64,000 nucleotides of DNA, taken from positions 1 through 64,000 of IMG/VR virus record IMGVR_UViG_3300037520_000900. The stretch is one strand, 5' to 3'. Shown here piece by piece: positions 26,192-61,700 of the stretch. The position numbers were made by a program, and so were the translations under genes. Under the pieces are notes generated by a model, which did no database searches, was not told the DNA's origin, and was given only the letters and a program-made list of their open reading frames with translations. Position 1 is the stretch's first letter. The number at the start of each line of letters is the position of its first letter. The stretch is from a virus.

Positions 26192-29100
26192 TTAAACGTC
26201 ATCAAAAGATGCACCTGTTGGTGTTATAACAAACTCGATATCAATATATTCTAACGCTCTTGTTGGTTTCAAATAAATTTTACCTGTTAAAGTGTTTGAA
26301 TCTAAATCTTCAGGAGTGTTTGAAACTGTAACTCTAAAGTCAATTAAACCTCTATCTCTTCTAATTGAATCCAAAATTGGGTTCACTGAATCTAAGAAGT
26401 CTTGTCTAACTTTATCGTCGTTTTGTTCAAATAGTAATCTTACTGCAACTGCTGAAATTAATTTTCTTGCTTGTAATAATAATCTTCTTACATTGATTCT
26501 GTCAAGTGCAGACTCTCTAACTTGTAATGTTTTATTACCCCAAATTACAGTTCCAACATCAGAGAAAGTGGCGATTGGGTTCAATCTTCCTTTATATAAA
26601 GTATCTCTATCATCTTGGGTCAGTTTTCTTCTTGCTTTAATCGCGTTTACAATACCACGAGTGTAACCTGCCGAAGCAAACCAAGGAAATGCAATATTGT
26701 CAGTTAATGCCAAGTTTTTAGTTACCTCTGCAGTTGGTGGTAAATAAAGTTGTGTATTATTAACTGAGTCTCTTGTTAATACCCACGGGTAATAAGTTGC
26801 GGTATAATTAGAATCAATTCCAGTATCTTCTAAGTTATCCACTGCCTGTTGTGGGTATATTAAACCTTCTTCTAAATCATTGTATGTTGGTAAGAATAAA
26901 TCAAAATCAGGAGTTGTACAAATATAAACTGAATCCGCTCTGTCTGTTTCAACCATATCTATCGCCAACTCAACAAGATTTGAATTATTAACATAATCAA
27001 TACCAGGTGTTGTAAATACGTTAATGTTAACCGCTTCAGGGTTTGCGAAAGTTTGTTGACCCCATAAATAAGCGTAGTAGTCAGTATTTGCCCAAGTCTC
27101 TTGGTTAGGTCCTGAAATTTGTTTGAAAGCTCCCCATCCTGTAGCAGTTGGGTATGTTATTGATGCTTCCGCACCTGCTTTGTAACCTGCTTGACCTAAT
27201 GCGAAAGTATCCTCATTTGTTCTATATTCTCTATATATGTCCCATCCATCAAAACCACCATAAGCAAAAACAGTAAATTTACGTGTATTCAAACGGAAGT
27301 ATGGGTTATTACTATCATTTGGTTCACTATTAAATGACCCAACACCAACTTCAAATGCTGCTGTTTGACCTGAAGTTAAAGTGTTATATTGTGTAATAAC
27401 TGTTGCTCCACTATCCATGTGAAAACCTTTAGTGGTATAACCCCAATCAATACCTTCAGTATCGGTACCTAAATTTATAGGAACTCGTTTTCCTTTATAT
27501 TCAAAGAAATCATAATCAATTCCTGTAATATTAGAAATTCCTAAGTATGCTCTTCTTGGGTTTTCACCGTTTGAAATAACTGGGTTATCTCCACCGTTAG
27601 ATGATCCAAAAGGAGGGTTATAAATCAATTCACCTGGTTGTAAATATTTAGTTTTATAAACCATAAATGGTGGTGTTGCGTTTGAGTATTCTCTCATGTT
27701 GTAACCCTCAAAACCACAAGGAAGCGCATCTACAGGAGCCTCATCGCTCATGTCTAACATGATATATTTTGATTTAACTTGATACTCGCCGTTAGATGTA
27801 CCAATTTTATTTGCCACATAATTATTCTGATTTGGATCTAACGAACAATTAGTGAAACTTTCTATAACTCTAACATTTTGATCAGTATCAAAGAAATCTC
27901 TAACAAATAAATCAAATGTTGAGTTATTGAATGACATGTTTGCTACCGATATTTTAACTAACCTGTTTGCCGCATTACCATCAGAAATTAATTTAGCCTT
28001 AAATAATTTATAAACTTTATTACCTCTTAGTTCAGAAACAAAATACGGAGTTTCTGGTGTTTGGAATTGCTCAAGATAAAATGCGATTGATCCTGTATCA
28101 TTTTGTCTTACACCACCTAAATCAATCCAATCACTATAAAGTCCTCTAATTTTACCTTGTCTATAACCTGTTGTTAAAAGTGCAGGGTAAGCCTCCTCAA
28201 CAAATAAAGGAACTTCCGTTCTATCTTTTCCAAAATTACTTCTACCAAATACCTTAGAAATATATTTTGAATCTGTTGTTAACATAGATGTTTCAAAACT
28301 AAAGTTATCTCCGTCTTGAGTCACACCAGAAACTAAGAACGTATCAAAAGGATCTCTGGTTACTCCAACATAATCTCCTGAAGTAATTAATATTGTATCT
28401 GTTTTAGCTGATACTTCATATCTAGGTCCGTCCTGTGTTGATGAGTAAGTTGAAATACCTCTTGATCTTAATGTTGCAACAACTAAATCATCAAATTCTA
28501 AATAAGGCGTTCCTGAATATTGTGTAAACATAATATTACAAGAACCAGAATAAGAACCTGCGGTTGCTCCCGTACTTATAGCATCTAAACTAATACCAAA
28601 ACCAAATCCAAAATATGATGATGCATCTGTTGATGGGTTTTGTGAATATGCGAATTGAGAATAAAACCAAGGATCGTTAGTTGATGATGATAATGTGTTA
28701 TTTGCAACATCTATACTACTAACCCCATAAGTCTCAGTTACTGAAGTAATGGTATTAACAGGTGTTGACGTTCCCGTAATGTAAGTAATAACTCCACCAC
28801 TTACACTACCCCAAAATTGAGCTGATGTGCCTGATGATGGATTTGCAGTTGAAAACAAAGTTATTTCGTTTGATAAATACGCTTGAATATCACTATTAAT
28901 TGTTGATGTTGAGTTATCATAGTTAGTGTATGTTGCATTTATAACTGTTGATAAAATAGCTGGAATATTAATTAATGATATTGATGACGGATTACCAGTT
29001 AACCCTGTAAATTGAAAGGTTGATGTAGTATTACCCGTAGCACCAATTGTTGACGGATCAACATTACCCATCGTTGTAATTGACCAAGAAGGTCCTGCGT

Positions 29101-29407
29101 CGTAACCTGACAAACCAAGTACTCTTGTTACGAACAATTGATTTGATTGTTGTAAATACGCCTTAGCAATATAAGATGTTTCGTATTTTGGTATTTGGGT
29201 GTTTACATATTTTTCAGGACTAGTTGAACCAAAATATACTTGGTACTCATCAAAATTTGTGATGAATATTGGTTCAAATGCCGGACCCTGTAAAGTCTCC
29301 CCAACAATACCTAAAGTTGTAACGCCGACACTTTGTGCGACGAATGTTAAATCTCTTTCTGAAGTATAAACCCCCGGAGATACAAATACTTTGTTAGATG
29401 AAGCCAT
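26192..29407 (-). CDS. Contractile tail sheath protein
   Basis: VSPGVYTSERD start; YYPWV, PWFASAGYTRG, NPIATF, WGNKTLQ, DRINVRRLL, KPTRALEYIDIEF. Confidence 0.95.
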   Translation of the reverse strand: MASSNKVFVSPGVYTSERDLTFVAQSVGVTTLGIVGETLQGPAFEPIFITNFDEYQVYFGSTSPEKYVNTQIPKYETSYIAKAYLQQSNQLFVTRVLGLSGYDAGPSWSITTMGNVDPSTIGATGNTTSTFQFTGLTGNPSSISLINIPAILSTVINATYTNYDNSTSTINSDIQAYLSNEITLFSTANPSSGTSAQFWGSVSGGVITYITGTSTPVNTITSVTETYGVSSIDVANNTLSSSTNDPWFYSQFAYSQNPSTDASSYFGFGFGISLDAISTGATAGSYSGSCNIMFTQYSGTPYLEFDDLVVATLRSRGISTYSSTQDGPRYEVSAKTDTILITSGDYVGVTRDPFDTFLVSGVTQDGDNFSFETSMLTTDSKYISKVFGRSNFGKDRTEVPLFVEEAYPALLTTGYRQGKIRGLYSDWIDLGGVRQNDTGSIAFYLEQFQTPETPYFVSELRGNKVYKLFKAKLISDGNAANRLVKISVANMSFNNSTFDLFVRDFFDTDQNVRVIESFTNCSLDPNQNNYVANKIGTSNGEYQVKSKYIMLDMSDEAPVDALPCGFEGYNMREYSNATPPFMVYKTKYLQPGELIYNPPFGSSNGGDNPVISNGENPRRAYLGISNITGIDYDFFEYKGKRVPINLGTDTEGIDWGYTTKGFHMDSGATVITQYNTLTSGQTAAFEVGVGSFNSEPNDSNNPYFRLNTRKFTVFAYGGFDGWDIYREYRTNEDTFALGQAGYKAGAEASITYPTATGWGAFKQISGPNQETWANTDYYAYLWGQQTFANPEAVNINVFTTPGIDYVNNSNLVELAIDMVETDRADSVYICTTPDFDLFLPTYNDLEEGLIYPQQAVDNLEDTGIDSNYTATYYPWVLTRDSVNNTQLYLPPTAEVTKNLALTDNIAFPWFASAGYTRGIVNAIKARRKLTQDDRDTLYKGRLNPIATFSDVGTVIWGNKTLQVRESALDRINVRRLLLQARKLISAVAVRLLFEQNDDKVRQDFLDSVNPILDSIRRDRGLIDFRVTVSNTPEDLDSNTLTGKIYLKPTRALEYIDIEFVITPTGASFDDV

Positions 29408-29443
29408 TTTTAAATCTTTTGTTTTTTATAATTTATTTTTCTA

Positions 29444-29451
29444 TATAAATA
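29444..29451 (-). promoter_or_regulatory. Putative late-promoter motif TATTTATA (sheath)
   Basis: About 37 nt upstream of the sheath ATG. Confidence 0.6.
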
Positions 29452-29500
29452 CCGCACTCAATAGCAAAAAGCTTTGATTTTTTTTATAAAAAAATATATG

Positions 29501-29529
29501 GTATGAAAAATTTCTGCCTTTTTTCATAC
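29501..29529. promoter_or_regulatory. Inverted repeat GTATGAAAAA-9nt-TTTTTCATAC, candidate operator
   Basis: Perfect 10-bp arms just upstream of a small RHH gene. Confidence 0.55.
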
Positions 29530-29550
29530 TAATAAACTATTTATTCCGGT

Positions 29551-29700
29551 ATGAAGAAAATCAAAAACATTAAAATTTCTGAAGAAGTTCACGACGTTTT
29601 AAAAAAATATTGTGAAGAAAAAGGATATAAAATTCACAAGTTTTTAGAAAAGTTGATTTTAAAAACATGCCAAAAAGAAAAAGATATTTACGGAGAATAA
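29551..29700 (+). CDS. Ribbon-helix-helix DNA-binding protein (49 aa)
   Basis: Manual translation MKKIKNIKISEEVHDVLKKYCEEKGYKIHKFLEKLILKTCQKEKDIYGE has the strand-helix-G-helix RHH pattern; TATTTATT at 29538-29545. Confidence 0.75.
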   Translation: MKKIKNIKISEEVHDVLKKYCEEKGYKIHKFLEKLILKTCQKEKDIYGE

Positions 29701-30741
29701 CTATATTATATATGTAACCGTCTTTAGTGTCGAAGATTCAGATACGTTATTTTTAGTTACAATTATTTTTAAAGTATCACCATTAGTTATTTGAATAGTT
29801 CCTATATTATCCCCAACATAATTGTTATTTATATAGACAGAATATGCGTCTACATTGATTGTATTTTCTACCACAATGTCTGCAGTATAATTAAATAATT
29901 CACTAACTTGGGTATTAGCACTAACAAATAAAATATCTAAATCAAAATTATCGGGTCTTGGTGGTTCTATTTTAATTTTTCTTTTTCTTGTTTTAGTGTC
30001 CACTTCTAACATAGTAACCGCCCTTGTTATTGCTGGAGAAACTTGAAATTCCTCTTCATCGATTAGTAAACCCTTTAAAGTGATTTTATAATTTGCAATA
30101 TAGTATTTTCTTTTTTCAAGTTCTTTTGACGATTCATCAGAAACATCGTCCATTATTATGGGTAAATAGTGTCCTTTTACATTTACGTACGCTTGTTTTG
30201 ATGTGAATGTTTGCATGAATATTTTATTAAATTCATTCAACTCCCTCATTCTATTACAGAATAGTTTTATATTATAGGTAATGTCAACAGGTATTGGTTG
30301 AGGTATTTTATAAACGTCAGCACCTTTTCTTTGCCCGTCCCAAGTTGGCACAGTATAATAATGAAAATGTTTTCTTTCAGGGATATTCGCTAACCCTCCT
30401 TGTAATGTTCCGTATTTAACTTCGGGCATTCTAACTGTAGTGACAAAAGGTAATTTAATATTTTTATCTAAATCATTAAAGTTCCAAGTTGTTGTAAATT
30501 GTGCCCAATTTTGATTTGTAATTATTTTATCAATTGTTGGTACTTTTTTTCCGTCAACAACAAGTTTCAATCTTTCTTTTACAAAATCTAAAATACCTTT
30601 ATCTAAATCCGCATGTAAAACACCTTTTGGTAAAAAAGTTCCGTCATCAGTTATTTGATCTAATAACTCTTGTCTTCTTTCTTTACCGACCTTTTCTGGC
30701 ACTAATGGTAAATGTTTTTTTATTTTTTTTGGTAATGCCAT
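29701..30741 (-). CDS. Tail terminator/completion protein (gp15-like)
   Basis: PQPIPVDITYNIKLFCNRMRELNE motif; between neck and sheath. Confidence 0.6.
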   Translation of the reverse strand: MALPKKIKKHLPLVPEKVGKERRQELLDQITDDGTFLPKGVLHADLDKGILDFVKERLKLVVDGKKVPTIDKIITNQNWAQFTTTWNFNDLDKNIKLPFVTTVRMPEVKYGTLQGGLANIPERKHFHYYTVPTWDGQRKGADVYKIPQPIPVDITYNIKLFCNRMRELNEFNKIFMQTFTSKQAYVNVKGHYLPIIMDDVSDESSKELEKRKYYIANYKITLKGLLIDEEEFQVSPAITRAVTMLEVDTKTRKRKIKIEPPRPDNFDLDILFVSANTQVSELFNYTADIVVENTINVDAYSVYINNNYVGDNIGTIQITNGDTLKIIVTKNNVSESSTLKTVTYII

Positions 30742-31256
30742 TATATCCCTTTGAATTCATTTTCATTAACAGGTGAAGCAATAATTGATCTGTAGAATCT
30801 TTTATACCCACCGTAAGTATGTTTGTTGTCAGTAAATACCCTTCCGTCATTGACGACAGAATAATACCTAACTCTATCTTCAGTCTCATAGTACCCAATG
30901 TAGTCACCATATTCAATTTCAATTCCCATCTCGTCTAAGTGTTTTTGATATACACCGACCTTTAAATTTCCTGGTTCCATTTGTGTTAGTTTAGAAGAAC
31001 CATAATCTGTATTTGCCGGAGCCTCAACTTGAACATATCCTTTAAATTCTACTGGGGGTAAAAATTGGATTCCGTCCTCTAATGTTTCACCATAAACATC
31101 ATCATTATTGGTTCTTTGTTTATCAACTCTATATAAAACAAGTGTAAAGTTCATGTCTCCATGTAACCACTCTTCACCCATATTAATATCTAAATTAAAA
31201 TCTTCTTCTGAGAAGAATTTATTTAATCTTGTAATTGGAACTTTATTCTGTGACAT
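30741..31256 (-). CDS. Neck/head-closure protein (gp14-like)
   Basis: LYRVD...DDVYGE...GDYIGY pattern; TATTTATA at 31261-31268 upstream. Confidence 0.6.
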   Translation of the reverse strand: MSQNKVPITRLNKFFSEEDFNLDINMGEEWLHGDMNFTLVLYRVDKQRTNNDDVYGETLEDGIQFLPPVEFKGYVQVEAPANTDYGSSKLTQMEPGNLKVGVYQKHLDEMGIEIEYGDYIGYYETEDRVRYYSVVNDGRVFTDNKHTYGGYKRFYRSIIASPVNENEFKGI

Positions 31257-31274
31257 ATAATATAAATACTATTA

Positions 31275-31305
31275 AAACAAAAAACCCACCTTTATGGGGT
31301 GGGTT
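31275..31305 (-). terminator. Intrinsic terminator
   Basis: AACCCACC/GGTGGGTT stem, U-tract on minus strand. Confidence 0.75.
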
Positions 31306-31325
31306 ATTTATTAGATTATTTTTTT

Positions 31326-31835
31326 TTAATATCCTCCATATCTTTTTCTATCTCTATCTAAATGTCTACGTAATTCTTGTCTTCTTTTACTAGTGTCATT
31401 AATACCCGTCTCATCTTGATATTTTTTAAATGAACTTTCCCATTTTGAAATATCGTCATCAAAATCTTTTAAATATGGTGCGTTTTTCTTAAAATCATCC
31501 ACTTTTGTTCCAAGTTCGTCATATTCACTTTGATAAGCGTCCACATCAAAATCCGAAGGTCTATTTTTAACAACATCAGAATATCTATCTTCTTCTTGTT
31601 TTGCTCTATAATCACGTTTTTTATTTTTTAACTCCATATGTCTTGGTTCGTCCCTCCATTTTTCAAATTCAGGTTCAAATAAATCAATATCACCATCAAA
31701 ATCGTTTAGGTACGGTGCTTTAGATCTAATATCTTGAAGTTCCATTTCATCTTCATCTGACCATTCATTCTCTCTAATTACTCGTCTTACAATTCTTGTA
31801 AGATCTGATTCAGTTAATCTAACTATTCTTTTCAT
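31326..31835 (-). CDS. Hypothetical protein with MKRIVRLTESDL leader and internal duplication
   Basis: Two APYL.DFD.DI...E..F.K..DE units; own TATTTATA (31865-31872) and terminator. Confidence 0.75.
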   Translation of the reverse strand: MKRIVRLTESDLTRIVRRVIRENEWSDEDEMELQDIRSKAPYLNDFDGDIDLFEPEFEKWRDEPRHMELKNKKRDYRAKQEEDRYSDVVKNRPSDFDVDAYQSEYDELGTKVDDFKKNAPYLKDFDDDISKWESSFKKYQDETGINDTSKRRQELRRHLDRDRKRYGGY

Positions 31836-31932
31836 CGTTTTTTTTTTGATTTATTATTTTTTCATATAAATATATAGTTAAAAAAAAAAGATTGATTTTT
31901 TTATATTATTTACTATTTTTATTTATAATATA

Positions 31933-33696
31933 ATGGAAGAACTAATTTCAAAAACTCCCGAAACAAGAGCCGTTCAATTGTTAGAAGAATATGAAGGGTC
32001 AAATAACTATATCTTGGCGTTAAAATACAAAAAGAATAATAGTAAATCATTTACACCCACAAGATCACAGGCCGAATACATTATAAATTTTCACGGACGA
32101 ACACCAAAAGTTGCAAAAAAATGGGTCAAACTTGATTCGTATTTTGGTAAAAAAATGATGGAAGAAAAAATGTACACCAAAGAACCAACAGAGATATATG
32201 TTGAGAAACTTTTGGTTGAGAAAGACAAATCATATCATATTTGGGGTAAGATATTTAGTGGTGATACCGTACATGACTTTTGGTTACCAAAATCGGCACT
32301 TATAAAAGATAACGAAGTGAAAAACGTTATTGTTGATTACAACAAATACAACCATAGACTTCCGATGGATCACCAAAAAGAGGCGATCACTAAATTGGTT
32401 GGTAACAAAAAATTCATATTGGCTGATGATATGGGACTTGGTAAAACTACATCAACGATAATATCCGCACTTGAAACGGGAGCAAAAAAAATATTAATAG
32501 TTTGTCCAGCATCTTTAAAAATAAATTGGCAACGTGAAATTGAAAATTATTCAGATAGGTCTGTTTATATTTCGGAAGGTAAAAAATTTTCTACTGAATC
32601 TGATTTTGTTATAATTAATTATGACATATTAAAAAACTTTCACGACCCAAAAAAGAAAGACGACTCTATTATTTTAAATTCTAATTTTGATTTGGTAATT
32701 ATGGACGAAGCTCACATGATTTCAAATCCACAAGCACAAAGAACAAAAATTGTAAATGATTTATGTGGAAAGGTTGAAAGAGTTTGGTTATTAACAGGAA
32801 CCCCAATGACATCAAGACCAATGAACTATTATAATCTTTTAAGTTTGGTTGAAAGCCCTGTTGCTGCAAATTGGATGGCTTATGCTAAAAGATACTGTAA
32901 TGGGTTTCAATTTAGTGTTGGAAAAAGAAAAGTATGGAATGTAGCTGGAGCCTCTAACTTGGATGAACTAAGAGAAAGAACTCAATCACATATTTTAAGA
33001 AGATTAAAAGAAGACGTATTAGATTTACCCGATAAAATTATTACACCTGTTTATTTAAGATTAAAGTCAAAAGATTATGAAGAACTTATGGGGGAATACT
33101 TCAATTGGTATGACAACAACTCAGAAGAGTCATCATCTTTAACAATTCAGTTTGGAAAACTAATGAAAGTTAGAAAGGTGATTGCTGAAGAAAAAGTTAA
33201 AAACACAATTGAATTGGCTGAAAATATTATTGAACAAGGGAAAAAAGTAATCATATTTACAAATTTTACAGACACATTACGAACAATTTATGAACACTTT
33301 GAAAAACAGGCGGTTTATTTAGACGGGTCTTGTTCAAAACCTCACCGACAAAAAGCTGTGGACGATTTTCAAGAAAATGATAAAATTAAAGTTTTTGTTG
33401 GTAATTTAAAAGCTGCTGGTGTTGGTATTACATTAACCTCAGCAGAAGCCGTAATCATGAATGATTTATCCTTTGTTCCTGCAGAACACGCACAAGCAGA
33501 AGACAGGTCTCATAGAATAGGTCAAAAAAATTCAACTTCAGTTTATTACCCTTTATTTGAAAACACAATAGAGGGTGTGATCTATGACATTTTAAATAGA
33601 AAGAAAAAAATCATATCAACAGTCATGGGTGATGACATGATGGAAGACGCATCTTCAATTGAAGAAATGTTAAATTTAATTTCTTCTAAGAGGTGA
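31933..33696 (+). CDS. SNF2-family helicase (SMARCAL1/HARP-like)
   Basis: ILADDMGLGKT, VCPASL, DEAH, LTGTP, RRLKEDVL, QAEDRSHRIGQ. Confidence 0.92.
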   Translation: MEELISKTPETRAVQLLEEYEGSNNYILALKYKKNNSKSFTPTRSQAEYIINFHGRTPKVAKKWVKLDSYFGKKMMEEKMYTKEPTEIYVEKLLVEKDKSYHIWGKIFSGDTVHDFWLPKSALIKDNEVKNVIVDYNKYNHRLPMDHQKEAITKLVGNKKFILADDMGLGKTTSTIISALETGAKKILIVCPASLKINWQREIENYSDRSVYISEGKKFSTESDFVIINYDILKNFHDPKKKDDSIILNSNFDLVIMDEAHMISNPQAQRTKIVNDLCGKVERVWLLTGTPMTSRPMNYYNLLSLVESPVAANWMAYAKRYCNGFQFSVGKRKVWNVAGASNLDELRERTQSHILRRLKEDVLDLPDKIITPVYLRLKSKDYEELMGEYFNWYDNNSEESSSLTIQFGKLMKVRKVIAEEKVKNTIELAENIIEQGKKVIIFTNFTDTLRTIYEHFEKQAVYLDGSCSKPHRQKAVDDFQENDKIKVFVGNLKAAGVGITLTSAEAVIMNDLSFVPAEHAQAEDRSHRIGQKNSTSVYYPLFENTIEGVIYDILNRKKKIISTVMGDDMMEDASSIEEMLNLISSKR

Positions 33697-33708
33697 TATT
33701 TATAATAC

Positions 33709-34800
33709 ATGAAAGTTAATATCACCTATAAAGGTTATGTTCCGACAAAAGAACAAAAAAGTCTTTTTGAAAAATTTATAGATTTTTTAAAAAAATCACA
33801 CCCATTAAAAAAAGATATTGATATTGTCTTTACCAAAGAAAGATACGGTAAGATGACAACAGGTGTAAGAACAAAAGATGACCTTATAAAAATTTTAGTA
33901 AAAGATAGATTAAATAGGGATATTCTAAAAACATTGTCTCATGAGTGGATGCACGAATATCAAAGAACGATATTAGGTAGAAAAAAAGGACCTAACATTG
34001 GTGGTAAAAATGAAGATGAAGCAAACGCTGTTTCAGGGGCCGATGTAAAAAAATTTGAAAAGGGTAACGAAAAACTAGAAAAAATAATTTACAAAAAATT
34101 TCAAAACAAAATTGATAAAATTGAAGAGGGGTTAAATGTCGAGTCATTCAATAATAAACTTTTAATAAATGAAATTAAAAAAGTTAGTATTGAAAGTTTA
34201 CCTTATGGTTATGGGGACTTAACAAATTTTATTGACTCTGAAACTATGAAAACTCATTACACAAAACACTACAAAGGTTATGTTGATAAATTAAACGTTG
34301 AATTAGAAAAAGTTAAAGGTAAAGATATTGATTTAGAAGAAATTATTACAAAAATATCAAAATTTAATAATAAAGTTAAAAATAATGGTGGGGGGGCTTT
34401 CAACCACGCATTATTTTGGAAAATGTTGTCACCAAAAAAACAAACAATTCAGGACCCAATAAAAAATGAAATTGAAAAAAACTTTGGTTCTTTTGAAAAA
34501 TTTAAAGAAAAATTTGAAGAAGAATCAAAAAATAGATTTGGTTCAGGTTGGGTTTGGTTAATACTAACCGACACCAACAGATTAAAGATTGTCTCAACGT
34601 CAAATCAAGATAACCCACTTATGAATACAGAAAAAGAACGGGGTTATCCGTTATTAGGTCTTGATGTTTGGGAACATGCATACTATTTAAAATATAAAAA
34701 CAAAAGAGACGATTACGTAAAAAACTTTTGGAAAGTTGTTAATTGGAGTTTTGTAAATGATCAATATACAACAAGAGTAGATATAAACAAATCAAAATAA
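33709..34800 (+). CDS. sod: Fe/Mn superoxide dismutase fused to an N-terminal HEXXH zincin-like domain
   Basis: LPYGY...HYTKHYKGYV...GGAFNHALFW...FGSGWVWL...NQDNP...DVWEHAYY; N-terminal HEWMH...EDEAN. Confidence 0.9.
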   Translation: MKVNITYKGYVPTKEQKSLFEKFIDFLKKSHPLKKDIDIVFTKERYGKMTTGVRTKDDLIKILVKDRLNRDILKTLSHEWMHEYQRTILGRKKGPNIGGKNEDEANAVSGADVKKFEKGNEKLEKIIYKKFQNKIDKIEEGLNVESFNNKLLINEIKKVSIESLPYGYGDLTNFIDSETMKTHYTKHYKGYVDKLNVELEKVKGKDIDLEEIITKISKFNNKVKNNGGGAFNHALFWKMLSPKKQTIQDPIKNEIEKNFGSFEKFKEKFEEESKNRFGSGWVWLILTDTNRLKIVSTSNQDNPLMNTEKERGYPLLGLDVWEHAYYLKYKNKRDDYVKNFWKVVNWSFVNDQYTTRVDINKSK

Positions 34801-34828
34801 CCAGATATTTATATAGAAATATATATCT

Positions 34829-35950: not shown

Positions 35951-35957
35951 ATATTTT

Positions 35958-36290
35958 ATGGGAATTTTCAGAAGTATCTCTTCAAAAAAAATAATTAATG
36001 GTGTTGAAATTCAAACGTCCGATTTGGCTGTTATTACAAATGAAAATTACAAAACTAACGGAGAATCCGCAATAGTAATTAAAGGTGTTGAAAATTGTAA
36101 TTTATTTTTAAATTCAACTACCACCGATCATATTGTAGTAAAGGCACTTACAAATGTTTTAGTGACATCAGATACTCTAATTGACGAAGAATTCAACGAG
36201 GTTGAGCTGACTAAAGGGTCTTGTGTTGAATTTAGAAAAATAGGTGACTTTTGGTATATACTTTCTTCGGACGGATTAAAAAATTCTTAA
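35958..36290 (+). CDS. Hypothetical beta-rich protein
   Basis: 110-aa ORF following the neck gene. Confidence 0.65.
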   Translation: MGIFRSISSKKIINGVEIQTSDLAVITNENYKTNGESAIVIKGVENCNLFLNSTTTDHIVVKALTNVLVTSDTLIDEEFNEVELTKGSCVEFRKIGDFWYILSSDGLKNS

Positions 36291-39187: not shown

Positions 39188-39250
39188 ATTTGTATTTTTT
39201 AAGTTTGGTGTATTAGCTGTTACTCATAGGTAACATTTACCTTCGTCTTA

Positions 39251-39279
39251 AATATAAGAGTAAACCTTACTCTTGTCAA
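39251..39279 (-). promoter_or_regulatory. Sigma70-type promoter TTGACA-17-TATATT for the polymerase, with palindromic spacer
   Basis: Minus strand TTGACA AGAGTAAGGTTTACTCT TATATT. Confidence 0.7.
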
Positions 39280-39629
39280 ATAATATTGATATAAAGATTT
39301 TCTCTAATTGGGCCTATTAGTTCTCCGTTTGATAACTCAATTAAAAATTCTCCGATGAATCTACCTTTTTTTGAGGTGTCTTTTCCTCTCCACTTGTAGT
39401 AAATATAATATTCTCTTGGTGAGTCGGGATTTCTTCTTTCTTTTTCTGTGATGTATGCCGGTCTCATAAATATTTTTTGGATCCCGTCATTTTCACTTTT
39501 CATAGAAAATCTAATGGTTGCATTGTCCAATATGGAATAAAAATCTTTCCAAGAGTCAGTTCTTCCGTCTCTTACGACATCCATTTTTAAAATGGGTAAA
39601 TTACTATTTTGTTTTATAAAGAATTCCAT
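39276..39629 (-). CDS. Virion structural protein, BppU N-terminal-like
   Basis: FFIKQNSNLPIL...ATIRFSM...YYKW...DT...GRFIGEF. Confidence 0.55.
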   Translation of the reverse strand: MEFFIKQNSNLPILKMDVVRDGRTDSWKDFYSILDNATIRFSMKSENDGIQKIFMRPAYITEKERRNPDSPREYYIYYKWRGKDTSKKGRFIGEFLIELSNGELIGPIRENLYINII

Positions 39630-39652
39630 TTAATATGAATAATTATTTTTTA

Positions 39653-40342
39653 TTATCCTACCCACCTTGCTTGGAACCAAGACCTTGAGTCGTATTGTGC
39701 TCTTGATAATGATGCTCCACCAACATTTATAATGCTTATATAATCAGTTGAACCGTTTAGATATACAATTTTTGTTATCTGTTGAGCCACCGCATCAAAA
39801 GAACCTGCAGCCGCAACGATGTCGGTATTTTTCTTAATTGCCATACTTGCTTCACTATTTCTATAAACATCATAAGTTGCGGTAATTTCCCAATAACCGG
39901 ACTTTTGTGGTGTAAATCTATAAGTTGAAGTATTGAACCAACCGCTTGGTACGTTGACTGTATTATTTACAATACTATATCTACAAGTATCATCAGTAAA
40001 ACCACCTGGTAAGGTGTAAGTCACATCTGCATACGCTTCAAGTAAATAAAGAGTAGGCACGGAACCGGTTCCACCTGTATATGCTGTTGTTTGTATCGTA
40101 TCATCAGGAAAAGTCATACCTGTTGGAGAAAAACTCCATGCGGTCCCAATTCCATCAGAAAAGTTAATGTTCACGTTTGTCGGATTAGACACTACCGCAC
40201 TACCTGGGGCGGATGGTCCGCTACTTATTGAGTCAGGAGTTGGTATGTTTGAATAACTTGTTGCTGATAAAATACCGTTAACCGTAAGATCTCCTGTAAT
40301 TGTTTGTCCTGAAACATTATCTACAATATACTTTGTACTCAT
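39653..40342 (-). CDS. Short fibre protein with C1q/TNF-like tip
   Basis: FNTSTYRFTPQKSGYWEI, IVYLNGSTDYI are C1q-like; N-terminus shared with neighbour. Confidence 0.65.
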   Translation of the reverse strand: MSTKYIVDNVSGQTITGDLTVNGILSATSYSNIPTPDSISSGPSAPGSAVVSNPTNVNINFSDGIGTAWSFSPTGMTFPDDTIQTTAYTGGTGSVPTLYLLEAYADVTYTLPGGFTDDTCRYSIVNNTVNVPSGWFNTSTYRFTPQKSGYWEITATYDVYRNSEASMAIKKNTDIVAAAGSFDAVAQQITKIVYLNGSTDYISIINVGGASLSRAQYDSRSWFQARWVG

Positions 40343-40868
40343 TTTGCTTGTACTTCTCTTTTAGAATTTATTCTATTTTGTTTTATAAAAAATTACATTA
40401 GTTGTATACTCTTATTTCTATTGATGTTATAATGTCATTCCCACCAATACCATCAGCTGATGATCCGGGCTCTACTGAGTTATTTGAGTATAATAATAAT
40501 CTATCATCACTCATCCATCTTGCAATACTTAATCTTCCTTTAGGTTGACCGTTGCCCCAAATTTGTGTATGTACTAATGTCTTGTTTTGGGTAAATTCAT
40601 TATTTGAACTAGTTATACGATATGTGCCTTGAGTTTCTCTTAAAAATGTTATTGACCCCGTAAAAGTACTTTCAAGAACAGTTGGATTAGGATCTCCACT
40701 TCCTGTTAATTGTGTTAACAAAGCAGTATATACTTTATATTTTGGTGTTATACTATTACCACTTACATAAAGAGTTGTTGCGGATATACTACCATTAATT
40801 GTAAGATCTCCTGTAATTGTTTGTCCTGAAACATTATCTACAATATACTTTGTACTCATTTTGCTTGT
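40284..40868. repeat. 68-bp perfect direct repeat (40284-40351 and 40801-40868) plus in-register 16-bp match (40366-40381 and 40883-40898)
   Basis: gtaagatctcctgtaattgtttgtcctgaaacattatctacaatatactttgtactcattttgcttgt twice, 517 bp apart. Confidence 0.95.
40398..40859 (-). CDS. Short fibre/decoration protein with alternative C-terminal domain
   Basis: Same first 20 aa as 39653-40342; YKVYTALLTQ...SIEIRVYN domain. Confidence 0.65.
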   Translation of the reverse strand: MSTKYIVDNVSGQTITGDLTINGSISATTLYVSGNSITPKYKVYTALLTQLTGSGDPNPTVLESTFTGSITFLRETQGTYRITSSNNEFTQNKTLVHTQIWGNGQPKGRLSIARWMSDDRLLLYSNNSVEPGSSADGIGGNDIITSIEIRVYN

Positions 40869-41683
40869 TCTTGACTTTGTGGATTTATTCTATTTTGTAT
40901 AATACTATTATAGTTATCTTTTATATTTTTTTGTTTAAAATCTTGATAACTAACGTTATTTATTATTTCATCTCTATTAGTGGTAAAAGATGCCCTTTTT
41001 AATACTTCTGTTGTTGTTGTTGCACTAAAATTATTTGAATCTACAACCATGATACCTAAAGCCCCAGTACTATCACCGACATATAGAGTTGACCCCTCGA
41101 TCCTTACGTTTTCAACCTGGTTATCGTCTGAAATAAAATATGTAAAAGGTTCGGTGTAATCACCAGATATACTTAAAACATCTCCTTTATCTAGTCCGTA
41201 ACTATTATTAATTAATATTTCTCTGTCAAAAGACACTGAGAATCCTCCTTGACATCCAAGACAATTATTATACTCAGATACAAGTCGTGAGGATGAGATT
41301 TCTAAATCCTCAGAAGTTAACCCAATAAACTCATAACAACCCTCAATTTCGGATATGCTTCCAGAAAAAACCTTACCTACTATTGGTAGAGTTTCAAACC
41401 CTATGGGTGACACGTAATAGTTAATTTCAGTCAAACAATTTCTAAAAATTAATTTAAAATTATTTTTATCCAAACAGTCCACACAATCTAAAGAATCTCC
41501 AAAAATTTGATAGTTTTGAAACTGATCGGTTTCTTCAACTGCACTATAACATCCTGTAATTTCACCACCAGGACCAGGTGTTCCCGCAGGTAAAACACTG
41601 CCGGTTTGTAACTGATTTTTTTTATCATTTACTATTTTAGTATCAGTAGGGTCTAAACAATTTTGTATTTTCCAATTTGCCAT
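40856..41683 (-). CDS. Cys-rich probable virion protein
   Basis: Two NCL...GCY...C..C units; in the fibre gene cluster. Confidence 0.6.
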   Translation of the reverse strand: MANWKIQNCLDPTDTKIVNDKKNQLQTGSVLPAGTPGPGGEITGCYSAVEETDQFQNYQIFGDSLDCVDCLDKNNFKLIFRNCLTEINYYVSPIGFETLPIVGKVFSGSISEIEGCYEFIGLTSEDLEISSSRLVSEYNNCLGCQGGFSVSFDREILINNSYGLDKGDVLSISGDYTEPFTYFISDDNQVENVRIEGSTLYVGDSTGALGIMVVDSNNFSATTTTEVLKRASFTTNRDEIINNVSYQDFKQKNIKDNYNSIIQNRINPQSQEQAK

Positions 41684-41696
41684 AATATTTTATTTT

Positions 41697-44600
41697 TTAA
41701 TCTGTTATATCTACAATATTTAATACGTCAGCTGAATCGTAATAAGATAATCTAGGTGCACCATCTTGTCTACCGAATATCGTACAATTATATCCACCAT
41801 AAACGTGTGTTGCTGGACCACTAGTAAAATCAAAAGCCTCAACACCAAATTCCACTGTATTATAACGGAAATCATCACCAACTGTATTTTGATGAAAATT
41901 ATCGGTTGTAATTCTATTATTGAAAAATCCCGTCCCAACAGTATTGTCATAAAAGTAGTAACCAATAAAGTTAGAACCGAAATTATTACCAACACTGTTA
42001 TTGTTAAATGCAAAGCCTATTTCATTACTGTAAAAGTTAATACCAATGTTATTGTTATTAAAACCACCACCAATGTTATTACCATAGAAAGGACCATCAG
42101 TAGTATTATTGTTAAACCTGTTACCTATTTGGTTATTTTGAAATTCGGCAAATCCAGAGACATCGTTTATTACATTATTAAAAAATTCATTTCCTATGTC
42201 ATTTCTTCTAAAAATTGCGTCAGTGGTATTGTTGTAAAACTCATCACCAATTAAGTTATCGATGAAGTTATTATTAATTACATTACCTCCAGCATTATTT
42301 GATGTATCGTTCCCAAAATAATTTCCAATTTTGTTATTTGTGAAAACCCCATCAATTACATTTTCAGTACCTGAACCACCATTACCAAAATAGTGACCAA
42401 TATCGTTATTTTCAAAAGTATTATTTATAGTATTAAACGCCATATAATTACCAATCTTATTAGAAACAAAATCAGAAGATATTGTATTTCCTACACATAC
42501 ATTTGATATATTGTTATCGACAAAATTTGGATTTAAGATGTTGAATATAAAATCATTTCCGATTTTATTATTTGTTGTGTTTGTGTCTGTTATATTAAAA
42601 GTAAAATTATCACCTATAACATTTCCAGAAAAACCATTATTAATTAAATTACCTCCGTCGACACCTAAATAATTTCCAAAGTTATTTCCGATTACGTTTG
42701 ATTTAAAGTCGTCAAAAATTTGATTGGTTAAACCTGGTGACCCAAAACCATTATTTCCAAAATTATCTGCAATTGTATTTTTTTGAAAGTTTAGTCCTAT
42801 TGTGTTATTAAAGAAATAATTACCAATTCTATTACTTTCAAAAGCATCGTCTATAGAATTACTTTGGAAATTGTTTTGAATTAAATTGTTTTCAAAATTG
42901 ATCCCTATAGTGTTATCTTGAAAATAATTCCCAATTACATTACTGTACATGTATTGACCAATAGTGTTATTTTGAAATCTGTCTCCTATTCTATTTCCGT
43001 ATTCTAATGATCCTCCATAACCAAAATCACTATCTATTATGTTATTATTAAAATAAGAACCAATTATATTATACGCAAATCTTTCACCATTATTTGATTG
43101 TGTGTAGATTGAGTTCCATTCGGTGTCACCAGGACCTGGCCAACCACCACCGAATGGAGGTGTATCAGTTATTGTATTATATAACCCACCTTGACCGTCT
43201 CTTGTTATTTCTACAACACCAGAAACAATAACATCTACTTCTGAACCATAATTAGTTTTAGTAAAAATAACGAATGAACCTATGTTATTACCATTTGAAT
43301 CTATTTCTTGTCTTTCGTATTGGAATCCGCCACCATTTCCTCCTTGTGTCCATTGTGTAAATTTAATTTTAAAATATTGTTGTGTTGATATAACTCTCAT
43401 CACAAGTTCTTTACCTAAAATATAATTACCAACATTATTATCAAGTGAAACTCTTAATGTATCATATGTTCTTGTTGATACTGTTGATAAGTCATTCCAC
43501 CCAAATAAATCTGAGTTAGAAGGCCTATTGTTTTCAAAATAAGTACCGACTGTATTAGTCCTAAAACCACTACTAATTATATTATCGTTAAAATAATAAT
43601 CAGTCGTGTTATTAGAAAAATCATCATATATAATATTTTCATTAAACCCATTACCAATATTATTTAAACCAAAATAGTTACCGGTTGTGTTATTGTTAAA
43701 TCCATTTAAAATGGTATTACCAATAAATTCACCATTAATTTCATTTGATTGGAAGTTTGTACCAACTTGATTATTTTGGAAATCTCGTCTAATTGTGTTA
43801 TTATTAAAATTATTACGAATATAATTTCTATAAAAATCAAAATTACCATAGTTAGCAAAGTCACCAATTGTGTTGCTATTAAAGTTATCTAATACTTCAT
43901 TTTTGTAAAAATCAGGATAAATCGTGTTACCATTAAATTCATTAGCAATTAGGTTATCATAAAATTGTGAAAATATTTCGTTATCATAAAATCCATGACC
44001 AATTGAATTATAATTAAAATTTCCATCAATAACATTATTATAAAAACCGTTTCTAATTTTGTTATCCCCAAAGTCGCTGTATATGGTGTTATCATTAAAT
44101 CCGACACATATTTGGTTATCAACGAAATTGCTGTTATTAAAGATTTTATTATTATTAAAATTATCTCCAATTACATTATCATTAAAATCGTCACAGATTA
44201 TTAAATTATTTCTGAAATTAGCGGCTATTTGATTATCAGTGAAATCCCAACCATTATAAATTGTATTATTCTCAAACTCGTCTCCTATAACATTATGTTC
44301 AACATCACTACTAAATGTGTTATTTATAAACTCGTTACCTATTCTGTTTCCAATTACGTCCTCACCAAAGACATTATTTGGTAATAAAAAATCATGCTCA
44401 CTCCAGTTTCTAAATATTGCAACATCTCCAATGTAATTTGAAATTATATCTTCATCTCCAAATAAGAATGTAGGATGTTCTGTGTATTGAATTGATATAT
44501 TATTTTGTTTATAGGTAAGTCCTGATCTTTGTGCAGGATAAAAACTAGCACCTGCCGAAACAGTGGGTATAGTTAATCCACTTACCACCATACTCGTGTC

Positions 44601-45455
44601 ACCAGATATTGATACAATTTCAAAGAAAGTCACATTTGTATCAGGAATCGCTATGTGGTCACCAACATTATAATTTGAAAATTTAGTTTCTCTACCTATT
44701 ACTTCACCTGTATTTTCAATTAGTTCAATCGTTCCTTCAGCAATATTGTTTTCTTTATAATAGTAGTTATCGTACCTTCTAAACAAAACTGATCTATGAT
44801 CATAATCAGTTCTATTACTAAACTCATCTATTCTTTCAGTGATTCTACCTTTTGCTTGACCCAAAGTAACTTCTGTTTGATTCCATGACCAATCATATTT
44901 TATTTTATCTTTTGGATATGTTGGTTGGTAAGCAATATTACTTATTGTGTTCGCACTTGTTGATAGAACAACGATTGGTTCTATAGGTCCTTGTTTGTAA
45001 TTGCCCGTAGTAATTGCACTACCCGCAAAGTTATAATCAGGTTGGTCATAACAAGTTTGAAAATCATTGATTAGATAATACGAACCTGGGTTTAATGTTC
45101 CACCTGTAATTAAATTATATAATTCACTATATGTTACAGAACTATAATTAGTTGTTGCAACACCAGTAAGATTAGAGCCATCCCCAAATAAGGTGGTGGC
45201 ACTAAAAGTACTTGCACTTAAACCATTATTAAAAATAGTATCTCCCGATACAGTACCACCTGTAAATGTACCACCGGTATTTATCACCACAGATTTTGTT
45301 CCACCTGTTGGGTTTGTTATTGTTAAAGTATTTGCAGAATAAGTAAGACCTGAAACACCTACCCCTTGCAAATAATAAAGGTTATTGTCCATGTCAGAAA
45401 AAGTAAGTTTACTACCCTTAGCATCTGGACCTATTTGTCTTGTAATTAATCCCAT
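41697..45455 (-). CDS. Tail fibre/spike with long Asn-rich 11-aa beta-solenoid repeats
   Basis: KGSKLTFSDMDNNL fibre-type N-terminus; dozens of N.IG..F..N. repeats. Confidence 0.75.
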   Translation of the reverse strand: MGLITRQIGPDAKGSKLTFSDMDNNLYYLQGVGVSGLTYSANTLTITNPTGGTKSVVINTGGTFTGGTVSGDTIFNNGLSASTFSATTLFGDGSNLTGVATTNYSSVTYSELYNLITGGTLNPGSYYLINDFQTCYDQPDYNFAGSAITTGNYKQGPIEPIVVLSTSANTISNIAYQPTYPKDKIKYDWSWNQTEVTLGQAKGRITERIDEFSNRTDYDHRSVLFRRYDNYYYKENNIAEGTIELIENTGEVIGRETKFSNYNVGDHIAIPDTNVTFFEIVSISGDTSMVVSGLTIPTVSAGASFYPAQRSGLTYKQNNISIQYTEHPTFLFGDEDIISNYIGDVAIFRNWSEHDFLLPNNVFGEDVIGNRIGNEFINNTFSSDVEHNVIGDEFENNTIYNGWDFTDNQIAANFRNNLIICDDFNDNVIGDNFNNNKIFNNSNFVDNQICVGFNDNTIYSDFGDNKIRNGFYNNVIDGNFNYNSIGHGFYDNEIFSQFYDNLIANEFNGNTIYPDFYKNEVLDNFNSNTIGDFANYGNFDFYRNYIRNNFNNNTIRRDFQNNQVGTNFQSNEINGEFIGNTILNGFNNNTTGNYFGLNNIGNGFNENIIYDDFSNNTTDYYFNDNIISSGFRTNTVGTYFENNRPSNSDLFGWNDLSTVSTRTYDTLRVSLDNNVGNYILGKELVMRVISTQQYFKIKFTQWTQGGNGGGFQYERQEIDSNGNNIGSFVIFTKTNYGSEVDVIVSGVVEITRDGQGGLYNTITDTPPFGGGWPGPGDTEWNSIYTQSNNGERFAYNIIGSYFNNNIIDSDFGYGGSLEYGNRIGDRFQNNTIGQYMYSNVIGNYFQDNTIGINFENNLIQNNFQSNSIDDAFESNRIGNYFFNNTIGLNFQKNTIADNFGNNGFGSPGLTNQIFDDFKSNVIGNNFGNYLGVDGGNLINNGFSGNVIGDNFTFNITDTNTTNNKIGNDFIFNILNPNFVDNNISNVCVGNTISSDFVSNKIGNYMAFNTINNTFENNDIGHYFGNGGSGTENVIDGVFTNNKIGNYFGNDTSNNAGGNVINNNFIDNLIGDEFYNNTTDAIFRRNDIGNEFFNNVINDVSGFAEFQNNQIGNRFNNNTTDGPFYGNNIGGGFNNNNIGINFYSNEIGFAFNNNSVGNNFGSNFIGYYFYDNTVGTGFFNNRITTDNFHQNTVGDDFRYNTVEFGVEAFDFTSGPATHVYGGYNCTIFGRQDGAPRLSYYDSADVLNIVDITD

Positions 45456-45478
45456 TTTTTATTTAATAAATATAAAGT

Positions 45479-47407
45479 TTATTCAAAATAAAACTCATCA
45501 ACGTAACCTTCAGGTAAATATCCATTTGTCACAAGACAATCAGGACACCAAAAATCAAATAGATTAAATTTGTTTTTTAAAACCCTAAAGTTATGTTGTA
45601 CTTGAGGAGAACCTAATGGTTCAACATACATTCTAAATTGTGATATTGCACCCATAAAAGTTCCACCAAAATTTTGTTCTAATAAAATATTTGTTGACAG
45701 TCCTGAAAGTGTTGTTGCAGATAAAATATTATTTGGAAACAATTCAGGGTCTTGCATATAAGGTCCGTTAGGTAAAGAACACCCTGAAAATATTAAATGA
45801 TCGTGTAATCCTTGGGTTCCCCCACCAAACGATAAGTTAAAAGGTACTCCTACTTGTTTTTCTTTTTCTGTATTTAATTCTCTCGGTATGATCTCTTCAA
45901 AGTCTTCTATAACTAAAAACAAATAACCATTAACATATAATTTTAATGTTCCTAACCTATAATCTAATTCATCAAACCATTTTCTATCAAAACTAATTTT
46001 ATGTATTTTTCTTTCTGGCGTAGACCCTGGATGTGTTTCAGGAGGAGATATTAAATTTATTGATCTACCATCTATTGATGATTGTGTTGTAATAACTCTT
46101 AAATCATTTAACCCACCAAGATTTAATAAATCACAGTCCTCAATTGTTTTATACCTTTCAAATACTGCACTTATCATTACCCACCTTTCCTCTTCTGTAT
46201 CACCACACTCTAAATTACAAATATCATAAATTGGTGGTGTACAGTATTCATTAATTGTATAACCTGTTTGAAATGTCACTCCCGTTGTTTCACAATATCC
46301 GGTAGTAACACAATCACCCGTTATTTTAATGTATCTGACACATAAACTTGGATTTAAAGGACAACCACTAAATTTTAAAGACATTGCATTTGATAAAACA
46401 TCAAATTTTGGATCTGTTTCAGGTAACGGAACATTTACTGTACTAACACATCCACAATCACAAGAAGTATCATGTATTGTTGTAAAACCACCACTTGGGT
46501 AAACTTTTATACAATCTGAATTTGTAACTGCGGTATTTGAACACCCACACGTTTCTATACAAGTAAGTTCGTTTGTGTTTCTTGTGTAACCAGTATCACT
46601 TAAAGGTGAACCACTTGCGTTATGGTAGAATTTATTTTCAGCTCTTGTACCAAAATAAAAGAATGTACCAGCATTAGATGGGTATTTGTCATTTAGATAT
46701 TCTTGTGTTGAAGTATTAATAAAAAATTCATCAGTTATCCTTGGTTTTAAAACCATTTCGGCAGTCCACCCTTTATTTACCCTTTCAGGAAAAACTTCGT
46801 AATCATATCCTTTTAATTTATAAAACCCTTGATAAAACCCACCATAAAGTTCTTGATAATAACCAATAGTTGATGCACTTTTAGAAACAATATTATAAAC
46901 CGTTTCTTTTGGTCTTCCTGAAAATCTTACGTTTGGCGGATTAACCAAACTTCTAACTGGATGCATTTTAAATCTACCATCCCTATAGTGTGGATCAAAC
47001 TTGTAATCATTGTGAACACCCTTTATGTAATATAAAGTTTGTCCGCTAAGTTCAGTAAATAATCCATTATCTGTACCAACTAAACCTACGTCACAAATTC
47101 CTGTGTATGCTGTATAACAACTAAAATCTAAATTTTTTGGGTTATAATAGTTAGAAGAAACTAAAGTATTAGATGGTATGTAATTTCCAAATGTGATATT
47201 TGATTGTAATGTATTTCCTGAATTATCTAACTGTATTGATATTGGAAGTCTGTTTCCGTCATTTAACGCAATAACATCGTTAGAAAAAACAACTTCTTCA
47301 TCATAACTTCTTTCGTCAGATGCAAGTGTTAGATCAAAATACCGACCATAACTTAATTTAGTAGAATATTTTGGAAAATAATAAGAATTAATATTTTGAC
47401 TTGGCAT
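45479..47407 (-). CDS. Cys-rich virion protein, possible LamG/ConA-like fold
   Basis: WVMISAVF, LKLYVNG, FMGAISQFRMY.EPL...VQHNF resemble LamG motifs. Confidence 0.55.
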   Translation of the reverse strand: MPSQNINSYYFPKYSTKLSYGRYFDLTLASDERSYDEEVVFSNDVIALNDGNRLPISIQLDNSGNTLQSNITFGNYIPSNTLVSSNYYNPKNLDFSCYTAYTGICDVGLVGTDNGLFTELSGQTLYYIKGVHNDYKFDPHYRDGRFKMHPVRSLVNPPNVRFSGRPKETVYNIVSKSASTIGYYQELYGGFYQGFYKLKGYDYEVFPERVNKGWTAEMVLKPRITDEFFINTSTQEYLNDKYPSNAGTFFYFGTRAENKFYHNASGSPLSDTGYTRNTNELTCIETCGCSNTAVTNSDCIKVYPSGGFTTIHDTSCDCGCVSTVNVPLPETDPKFDVLSNAMSLKFSGCPLNPSLCVRYIKITGDCVTTGYCETTGVTFQTGYTINEYCTPPIYDICNLECGDTEEERWVMISAVFERYKTIEDCDLLNLGGLNDLRVITTQSSIDGRSINLISPPETHPGSTPERKIHKISFDRKWFDELDYRLGTLKLYVNGYLFLVIEDFEEIIPRELNTEKEKQVGVPFNLSFGGGTQGLHDHLIFSGCSLPNGPYMQDPELFPNNILSATTLSGLSTNILLEQNFGGTFMGAISQFRMYVEPLGSPQVQHNFRVLKNKFNLFDFWCPDCLVTNGYLPEGYVDEFYFE

Positions 47408-56188: not shown

Positions 56189-56443
56189 ATGGAAACAATC
56201 GGTAACTTAATTGATAAATTAACTGTAACTAATATTCGTATATGGATGGCCGAGGATATTAAAAGAAAAAACGATGCAACGGATTTTGAGATTGCAAATG
56301 CAACAAAGATTACGAATGTTGCAAATCAACAAAGAAATGACCTTATACAAGAAATTGATGAGTTGATTAATTATTTGGTTGAAAATAAAAAATCTCAAAA
56401 ACTTTACAAACAAGGATCAAATAAAATGTACGGAAAGCAATAA
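56189..56443 (+). CDS. Small helical protein, DUF4254-like
   Basis: ETIGNLIDKLTV..IRIW..ED..R...QRNDLIQEID. Confidence 0.55.
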   Translation: METIGNLIDKLTVTNIRIWMAEDIKRKNDATDFEIANATKITNVANQQRNDLIQEIDELINYLVENKKSQKLYKQGSNKMYGKQ

Positions 56444-56444
56444 A

Positions 56445-59232: not shown

Positions 59233-59245
59233 ATAAAAAAAAAAT

Positions 59246-61095: not shown

Positions 61096-61097
61096 AA

Positions 61098-61697: not shown

Positions 61698-61700
61698 AAA

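Follow-up and report, generated by a model that had tools for sequence, protein, structure and literature searches.

A short peptide motif, [ST]-[GA]-x-T, occurs in large excess in the tail proteins encoded by a 64,000-nucleotide stretch of viral DNA (IMG/VR record IMGVR_UViG_3300037520_000900; hereafter the window), where it probably forms the core of a structural beta-fibre repeat unit. The window is the first 64 kb of one 80,276-bp viral contig with ~30% G+C. CheckV places the contig at 27% completeness – implying a genome of ~300 kb – and its tail sheath and baseplate hub genes mark the source as a contractile-tailed phage. An earlier sequence-only reading noticed the motif in virion proteins and proposed that it is an acceptor sequon for glycosyltransferases (GTs) encoded nearby. 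The premise that the motif is real as defined and confined to exterior tail proteins is borne out by our counts; the function that we favour is a different one.

Enrichment of the motif in tail proteins

The motif-bearing tail features of the window are listed below (aa, amino acids; nt, nucleotides; ORF, open reading frame; E, expectation value).

26192..29407 (-): 1071-aa tail sheath (phrog_23, E 1e-53); 7 sites
39653..40342 (-): 229-aa fibre protein; 4 sites
40398..40859 (-): 153-aa fibre-module ORF with the N-terminal leader MSTKYIVDNVSGQTITGDLT; 2 sites
40856..41683 (-): 275-aa fibre-module ORF; 1 site, not enriched
41697..45455 (-): 1252-aa tail fibre; 14 [ST][GA]xT sites, all in aa 35-314 (nt 44511-45455)
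45159..45356 (-): part of the fibre shaft (aa 34-99) made up of 13 back-to-back five-residue units (pentads), with 8 motif sites
45479..47407 (-): conserved 642-aa protein that heads the fibre module; 9 scattered sites, 0.8 expected

Together, the six tail proteins contain 37 [ST][GA]xT sites, compared with 8.1 expected from whole-protein shuffles. When residues were shuffled only inside 12-60-aa segments, the expectation was 9.4-10.0 and none of 2000 shuffles reached 37. The excess thus persists under the composition correction that the sequence-only reading had called for (37 sites against 8.1-10.0 expected by shuffling). The z score of the motif is 9.0, against -0.9 to 3.1 for five reorderings with the same composition. 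Because the excess survives local shuffling and the reorderings are flat, composition bias is ruled out as its cause. A DNA-level motif is ruled out as well, since the pattern is confined to the coding frame and is spelt with varied codons. When all a-b-x-c patterns in the tail proteins were ranked, SAxT came top and both SGxT and TGxT fell within the top 12.

Each fixed position of the motif is specific. Position 1 favours S or T (4-7x), with D, N, A and G at ~1x; position 2 favours G or A (4-5x); and position 4 favours T (4-5x), with Ser at 1.0-1.5x, V at 1.7x in the window set and I not enriched. We observed this positional specificity in three sets: the tail proteins of the window, 120 proteins of the fibre family described below and 60 representatives of the 642-aa protein family.

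The enrichment is unevenly distributed among the phage proteins. The fibre module accounts for 30 sites where 6.1 are expected (4.9x), and the sheath for 7 where 3.6 are expected, a weak excess (p 0.02-0.07). The major capsid protein, encoded outside the window at contig positions 76125-77948, has 3 sites (1.2 expected; not significant), and the hub and adaptor together have none (0.6 expected). Two giant ORFs of 2457 and 2131 aa hold 13 sites (6.3 expected; p 0.01). The remaining 59 ORFs hold 19, compared with 13.2 expected, and are thus not depleted; by chance alone, a four-residue motif of this degeneracy turns up about once per 1000 aa.

The sequence-only reading had tallied the narrower [ST]GxT pattern by eye, and its counts were exact for the sheath (6), the 1252-aa fibre (9, all within aa 35-314), the 642-aa protein (5) and the 229-aa protein (3). 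The SANT, SAST and SATT variants that it cited in the 1252-aa fibre lie at aa 40, 80 and 85. Its five sites in a baseplate hub could not be recovered: the sole hub identified by PHROGs (23586-24344; phrog_150) has none, and the only other ORF with exactly five is the 2457-aa giant ORF at 7131-14504 (1.6 expected; p 0.025).

Placement and conservation of the sites

In the 1252-aa fibre, 14 sites fall within aa 1-315, where 1.85 are expected, and none within aa 316-1252, where 1.0 is expected. The pentad run at aa 34-99 reads VSGLT YSANT LTITN PTGGT KSVVI NTGGT FTGGT VSGDT IFNNG LSAST FSATT LFGDG SNLTG, with its motif sites at intervals of 5 or 10 residues. Across the fibre module of the window, hydrophobic residues follow the motif at 70% of sites and precede it at 57%, compared with a background of 33% (p 4e-5 and 0.01, respectively). 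When the fibre proteins of relatives are included (205 sites), the hydrophobic flanks stand at 65% and 63%, and at 63% of sites position x is occupied by G, T, N or S. Two-residue hairpin turns favour these four residues at the second position of the loop.

An AlphaFold2 model of the first 330 aa of this fibre contains a confident domain from aa 105 onwards, with a predicted local distance difference test score (pLDDT) above 95. Within this domain, the sites SANT167 and SGDT284 span two-residue turns between strands. The shaft itself is modelled at pLDDT 42-68, as would be expected of an oligomeric shaft modelled as a monomer. For residues 94-232 of the fibre, the matches are tail-fibre proteins of two phages, Clostridium phage phiCT453A and Sphingomonas phage PAU (gp99; E 1e-7 to 1e-8). 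From aa 316 to 1252 (41700-44510(-)) the protein consists of another type of repeat domain, in which NNxF, GNxI and FYxN patterns abound.

The sites of the 642-aa protein are conserved as a pattern. Six of them persist in 10 or more of 11 relatives, S and T or G and A replacing one another. A set of 45 more distant homologues (34-66% identity) contains 625 sites where 122 are expected, and the pattern at sites 121, 272, 292, 375 and 381 is retained in 68-79% of 46 homologues in the same identity range, again with S/T and G/A swaps. The AlphaFold2 model of the protein shows a confident mixed beta/alpha fold (pLDDT 83; predicted template-modelling score 0.85). In this model, strands begin with the Thr of sites 99 and 121, and site 375 spans a strand start; site 177 lies in a hairpin turn, site 381 within a strand and the remaining four in coil. 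The sequence-only reading had counted placement in buried beta-turns against its sequon, and the sites do sit at hairpin turns and strand starts in the fibre and 642-aa models – which goes part of the way to that outcome. Foldseek returned nothing at E <= 0.001 for either model, and its matches, to lectin-like jelly rolls and tailspikes, were weak; the 642-aa protein resembles lectin-like jelly rolls weakly (best E 2e-3).

Five of the sheath sites belong to an extra domain peculiar to the lineage (aa 124-363, within nt 28298-29080); the remaining two (aa 666 and 679) fall on the margin of the C-terminal core, which is conserved. Among 74 sheath homologues (61-95% identity) the mean is 9.4 sites, compared with 3.8 expected, and the recurrent sites are mostly in the extra domain (aa 120-360). 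The sequence-only reading had described the motif carriers as having unrelated folds. This description holds insofar as the motif appears in several contexts – fibre shaft modules, the mixed beta/alpha fold of the 642-aa protein and the extra domain of the sheath – though within the window only fibre-module proteins are individually significant.

We identified 14 IMG/VR contigs that encode a homologue of the 642-aa protein (65-89% identity) in the same gene order as the window. In these loci, the fibre genes downstream of the 642-aa homologue are 4-6x enriched (for example, 22 sites vs 4.4 expected and 12 vs 2.0), including some without a BLAST match to any window protein, while the enzymes have zero or one site. 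The large fibre proteins of two loci, L012 and L014 (1523 and 1127 aa), show no excess, despite a homologue of the window GT2-family glycosyltransferase gene upstream. The fibre of another locus (L013:15445-17547(+)), with 14 sites where 4.2 are expected, ends in a C-terminal beta-propeller of LVIVD repeats (PF08309, E 1e-42) that is probably its receptor-binding tip.

Searching with the 572-aa fibre of one relative brought up over 1,645 metagenomic proteins, of which the top 120 contain 2228 sites, compared with 554 expected, with a maximum of 79 in a 907-aa protein. The proteins are assembled from long conserved modules, among them YLPLSGGTVSGxTxFxSGLTANTISATTYxNLP and, in tandem, VYVTGGTYSxGTATFTNNTGGTFxVxGF. 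Site-to-site distances peak at 5, 10 and 15 residues, with counts of 33, 15 and 8 in the relatives' fibres and of 356, 172 and 175 in the 120 family members. Some of the relatives' fibres also have collagen-like Gly-x-Thr runs that yield the motif with a period of 3. Many related fibres (P0037-P0101) share a C-terminal domain along with such runs, in which Thr fills the third position of 29% of 876 triplets and Gln that of 31%. The tail proteins of the contig itself contain no (Gxx)n run reaching five units.

Known families and cultured phages offer few counterparts. Searches of the fibre proteins and their relatives against Pfam, PHROGs and NCBIfam gave no match, nor did PDB sequence searches with two motif-rich fibres or a tblastn search with one such fibre across 50,697 cultured-phage records, among which no isolate of the lineage came to light. 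A 57-aa module gave just a 14-residue match (E = 3) among cultured-phage records. This stretch, GNYLPLSGGTVQGQ in the gp25 tail fibre of Aeromonas phage ZPAH14, is a near match to a module of a relative's fibre, though the ZPAH14 fibre is not itself motif-enriched. The 'LPLSGGT-x-x-G' element of cultured-phage fibres is likewise a short Gly/Thr-rich strand-and-turn element, but it occurs singly, whereas this lineage multiplies it – up to 79 copies per protein – in a strict five-residue register. The fibres of T4 and P2 are without the element. A literature search returned nothing relevant on GGTMTG or GDGSxLTG-type peptides.

Controls from cultured phages show no comparable excess. In T4, gp34 has 1 site (4.5 expected), gp37 has 7 (3.7 expected) and the sheath (gp18) has 2 (1.5 expected), and the short fibre (gp12) and the baseplate proteins likewise show no excess. 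The phiCT453A tail fibre, which shares the central domain of the window fibre, has 1 site (1.1 expected). In Microcystis phage Mel-JY01 – the nearest cultured relative by sheath, at just 29% identity – the sheath, capsid protein and giant ORFs are not enriched, though two GT2 genes are present. With no excess in T4 fibres and no site in P2 gpH, a universal fibre motif is ruled out; nor does gpH carry an SGGTMTG element. These comparisons indicate that the motif is a trait of this lineage and not of fibres generally.

A proposed structural repeat and its alternatives

We propose that the true unit is hydrophobic-[ST]-[GA]-x-T-hydrophobic and that it would build beta structure in tail-fibre and distal-baseplate proteins. 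In shaft segments the unit would be tiled head to tail with a period of five residues, and these pentad runs may form a solenoid-like or intertwined oligomeric shaft. In globular domains it would mark a tight turn and, directly after it, the start of a beta-strand. Judging by the secondary structure of the models and by known turn preferences, the Ser/Thr hydroxyls and the small residue would serve turn formation and strand start. The motif would then require no enzyme, and the sugar genes described below would act on another target, or on the virion without involving the motif.

We consider this proposal the probable one because of the five-residue register, the hydrophobic flanks, the turn-type residues at x, the restriction of position 4 to Thr, the fixed and conserved sites and the placement of sites in the models. 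It also accounts for the capsid protein, hub and adaptor not being enriched. The register and flank tests distinguish a repeat architecture from a free-standing recognition site.

Several points nevertheless weigh against it. The preference for a hydroxyl at position 1 and Thr at position 4 is sharper than turn or strand propensity predicts, and Ala at position 2 suits a type II' turn less than Gly does. The excess spans fibre shafts, the 642-aa protein and the sheath extra domain – more than a single repeat family would explain – and it is specific to the lineage, being absent from T4, P2 gpH, the phiCT453A fibre and the Mel-JY01 sheath. The shaft itself was modelled at low confidence, and neither a solved structure (PDB search) nor a Pfam family matches the modules.

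The nearest structural analogy is with pentapeptide-repeat proteins, which form a right-handed quadrilateral beta-helix with the consensus [STAV][DN][LF][STR][G]. Both are built from tandem five-residue units in which a central hydrophobic residue precedes first S/T and then a small residue, and three of five positions agree when the registers are aligned. The residue before the hydrophobic position is Thr here, not Asp/Asn, and the runs here are short (2-13 units). A beta-helix was not recovered in the low-confidence AlphaFold2 monomer model of the shaft (pLDDT 42-68), and neither the pentapeptide family nor any other Pfam family was found at E <= 1 for the window shaft and eight related fibres.

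The glycosylation proposal of the sequence-only reading rested on a second premise, a cluster of glycosyltransferase genes, and a large island of sugar and glycosyltransferase genes is indeed present at 50-66 kb.

50050..51261 (+): 403-aa RfaG-like GT-B glycosyltransferase (weak PF13692 match; the Atlas clusters it falls in are purely viral and carry the name 'RfaG glycosyltransferase')
54032..55537 (+): 501-aa protein with two GT-A (GT2) domains (PF13712, E 5e-22; PF00535, E 1e-12)
56379..62672 (+): sugar-nucleotide block encoding a GMD-like short-chain dehydrogenase (paralogue), a nucleoside-diphosphate-hexose C-methyltransferase, two FkbM methyltransferases, a GDP-mannose 4,6-dehydratase (GMD) and two unassigned ORFs
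64327-66209 (contig positions, beyond the window): two more GT genes (GT1-like and GT2)

The island encodes at least five glycosyltransferase domains in total, and its GDP-mannose 4,6-dehydratase matches TIGR01472 (gmd) at 398 bits. The RfaG-like gene is its most conserved sugar gene, with 79-90% identity in all 13 relatives whose locus reaches that far. The island is interleaved with genes of early type, encoding dUTPase, exonuclease and PhoH. We examined 50 IMG/VR records with motif-rich fibres and found GT2 genes in all 24 that are at least 44% complete; the records without one are all fragments of at most 37% completeness. A separate complete 308-kb record has four GT2 genes. Because all of these relatives are ~300-kb phages and the 50 records include no GT-free control, the co-occurrence carries little weight. 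Neither a hydroxymethylase of the thymidylate-synthase type, a sign of DNA glycosylation, nor a glycosyltransferase with a protein-recognition module such as tetratricopeptide repeats was found in the 80-kb contig, which represents 27% of the genome.

On the sequon reading, [ST]-[GA]-x-T would be the target of a soluble phage glycosyltransferase, which probably reads it as a displayed turn in folded domains of fibre and sheath and adds a methylated, deoxyhexose-containing glycan made by the island. The tail exterior would then be coated, and the motif could be structural and an acceptor at once. This reading draws on the hydroxyls at both fixed outer positions, each specifically required, on the confinement of the motif to exterior tail proteins in more than one protein context, and on the breadth of the island – from its glycosyltransferase domains and conserved RfaG-like GT-B to its GMD, C-methyltransferase and FkbM methyltransferases. 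GT2 genes accompany motif-rich fibres in every near-complete relative, a co-occurrence of little weight as noted above. Mel-JY01, with two GT2 genes and no excess, counts against the reading, as do the two relatives' large fibres that lack an excess downstream of a GT2 homologue. No result ties the motif to the island, which, lying among early-type genes, could equally serve modification of DNA or of the host surface. The register, the hydrophobic flanks and the fixed positions are equally expected of a structural repeat. Since the other phage proteins are not depleted and the motif arises by chance at the frequency given above, a bare four-residue motif cannot alone give specificity in the cytoplasm. 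We regard the sequon reading as unlikely, though the insistence on a hydroxyl at both outer positions and the recurrence of the excess in the sheath extra domain and the 642-aa protein keep it in play, perhaps as an acceptor that a structural repeat displays.

Two systems set precedents for this kind of modification. Mycobacteriophage virions are O-glycosylated by phage-encoded GTs, with glycans shown chemically on the C-termini of capsid and tail-tube subunits (Freeman et al. 2023, as recounted in PMC12619734). The likeness is that of a tailed phage that encodes its own GTs and could decorate its particle. The motif here, by comparison, is internal and occurs in fibres and sheath, and the capsid protein – the chief mycobacteriophage target – is not enriched, so the motif lends no support to the glyco-coated virion envisaged by the sequence-only reading. 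The second system is SgtA of Clostridioides difficile, which adds O-linked N-acetylglucosamine to Thr in the Gly-Pro-Thr collagen-like repeats of the spore-surface protein BclA3 (PMC7157674). There, a soluble transferase modifies Thr residues in Gly-x-Thr surroundings along a surface fibre built of repeats, which is reminiscent of the relatives' fibres with Gly-x-Thr runs. The window proteins, however, have no collagen-like run and a period of 5 rather than 3, and no SgtA-type enzyme was identified in the 80-kb contig. The window thus shows the defining features of neither pattern.

The broader scenario – that ~300-kb aquatic jumbo phages coat their fibres, distal baseplate protein and sheath outer domain with a phage-made methylated deoxyhexose glycan at a displayed Ser/Thr-Gly/Ala-x-Thr turn – seems to us somewhat less likely still than the sequon as such. 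If it is true, virion glycosylation in tailed phages would gain its first defined acceptor motif, in a very common aquatic lineage, with a bearing on phage-host recognition and on the escape of particles from defences or grazers.

The hydroxyl specificity and exterior location would also be compatible with some other function: a site for phosphorylation or methylation, or an array of Thr/Ser hydroxyls that binds host polysaccharide. Host-dependent methylation of a phage tail protein reportedly matters for infectivity, and the weak resemblance of the 642-aa carrier to lectin-type jelly rolls could fit polysaccharide binding. No specific enzyme or ligand is indicated in the window, and the register and hydrophobic flanks favour a role in folding; we consider such a function improbable. 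There remains the reading that the motif reflects chance, composition or a post-hoc choice without selection. The motif was indeed picked after looking at the data, and the sheath of the window alone is not significant (p 0.07). This reading is effectively refuted by the shuffles and flat reorderings described above, by the first rank of SAxT, and by replication of the excess in relatives' fibre genes that do not match the window, in the 74 sheath homologues and in the 45 distant homologues of the 642-aa protein.

If the motif is structural, as we favour, the result is modest: a large fibre-repeat family, with more than 1,600 aquatic metagenomic proteins, that lies outside the coverage of Pfam and the PDB. 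The signature hydrophobic-[ST]-[GA]-x-T-hydrophobic in a five-residue register would then aid the annotation of fibre genes in uncultured jumbo phages.

Lineage and neighbouring genes

At least 600 sheath homologues in IMG/VR (including loci L028-L107) show how abundant this lineage is in aquatic metagenomes; it may overlap the 'moraphage' lineage of PMC12619734.

Within the fibre module, the 229-aa and 153-aa ORFs share the leader MSTKYIVDNVSGQTITGDLT, with one mismatch in the first 25 residues, and the 229-aa protein matches the C-terminal part of the 572-aa fibre of locus L003 at 89% identity. Taken together, the shared leader and the 572-aa fibre of relatives look like modular exchange or splitting of fibre genes.

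The two giant ORFs gave no informative family match. The 2131-aa ORF (14816-21211(-)) contains a (Thr-Pro)n linker followed by SASTATTAVT around aa 1200-1220. Mel-JY01 has giant ORFs (1348 and 2255 aa) in the same place, after its tail tube.

Adjoining the capsid gene is a gene for a 662-aa protein that contains 14% Thr and carries CUB and GEVED domains (L019:9986-11974(-), corresponding to contig positions 73986-75974), in which the motif is not enriched (2 sites vs 2.8 expected). Between the fibre module and the early-gene block lies a 255-aa ORF (47459-48226(+)) with a DUF3721 N-terminal motif (PF12518, E 5e-9), which is kept in relatives at 54-77% identity.

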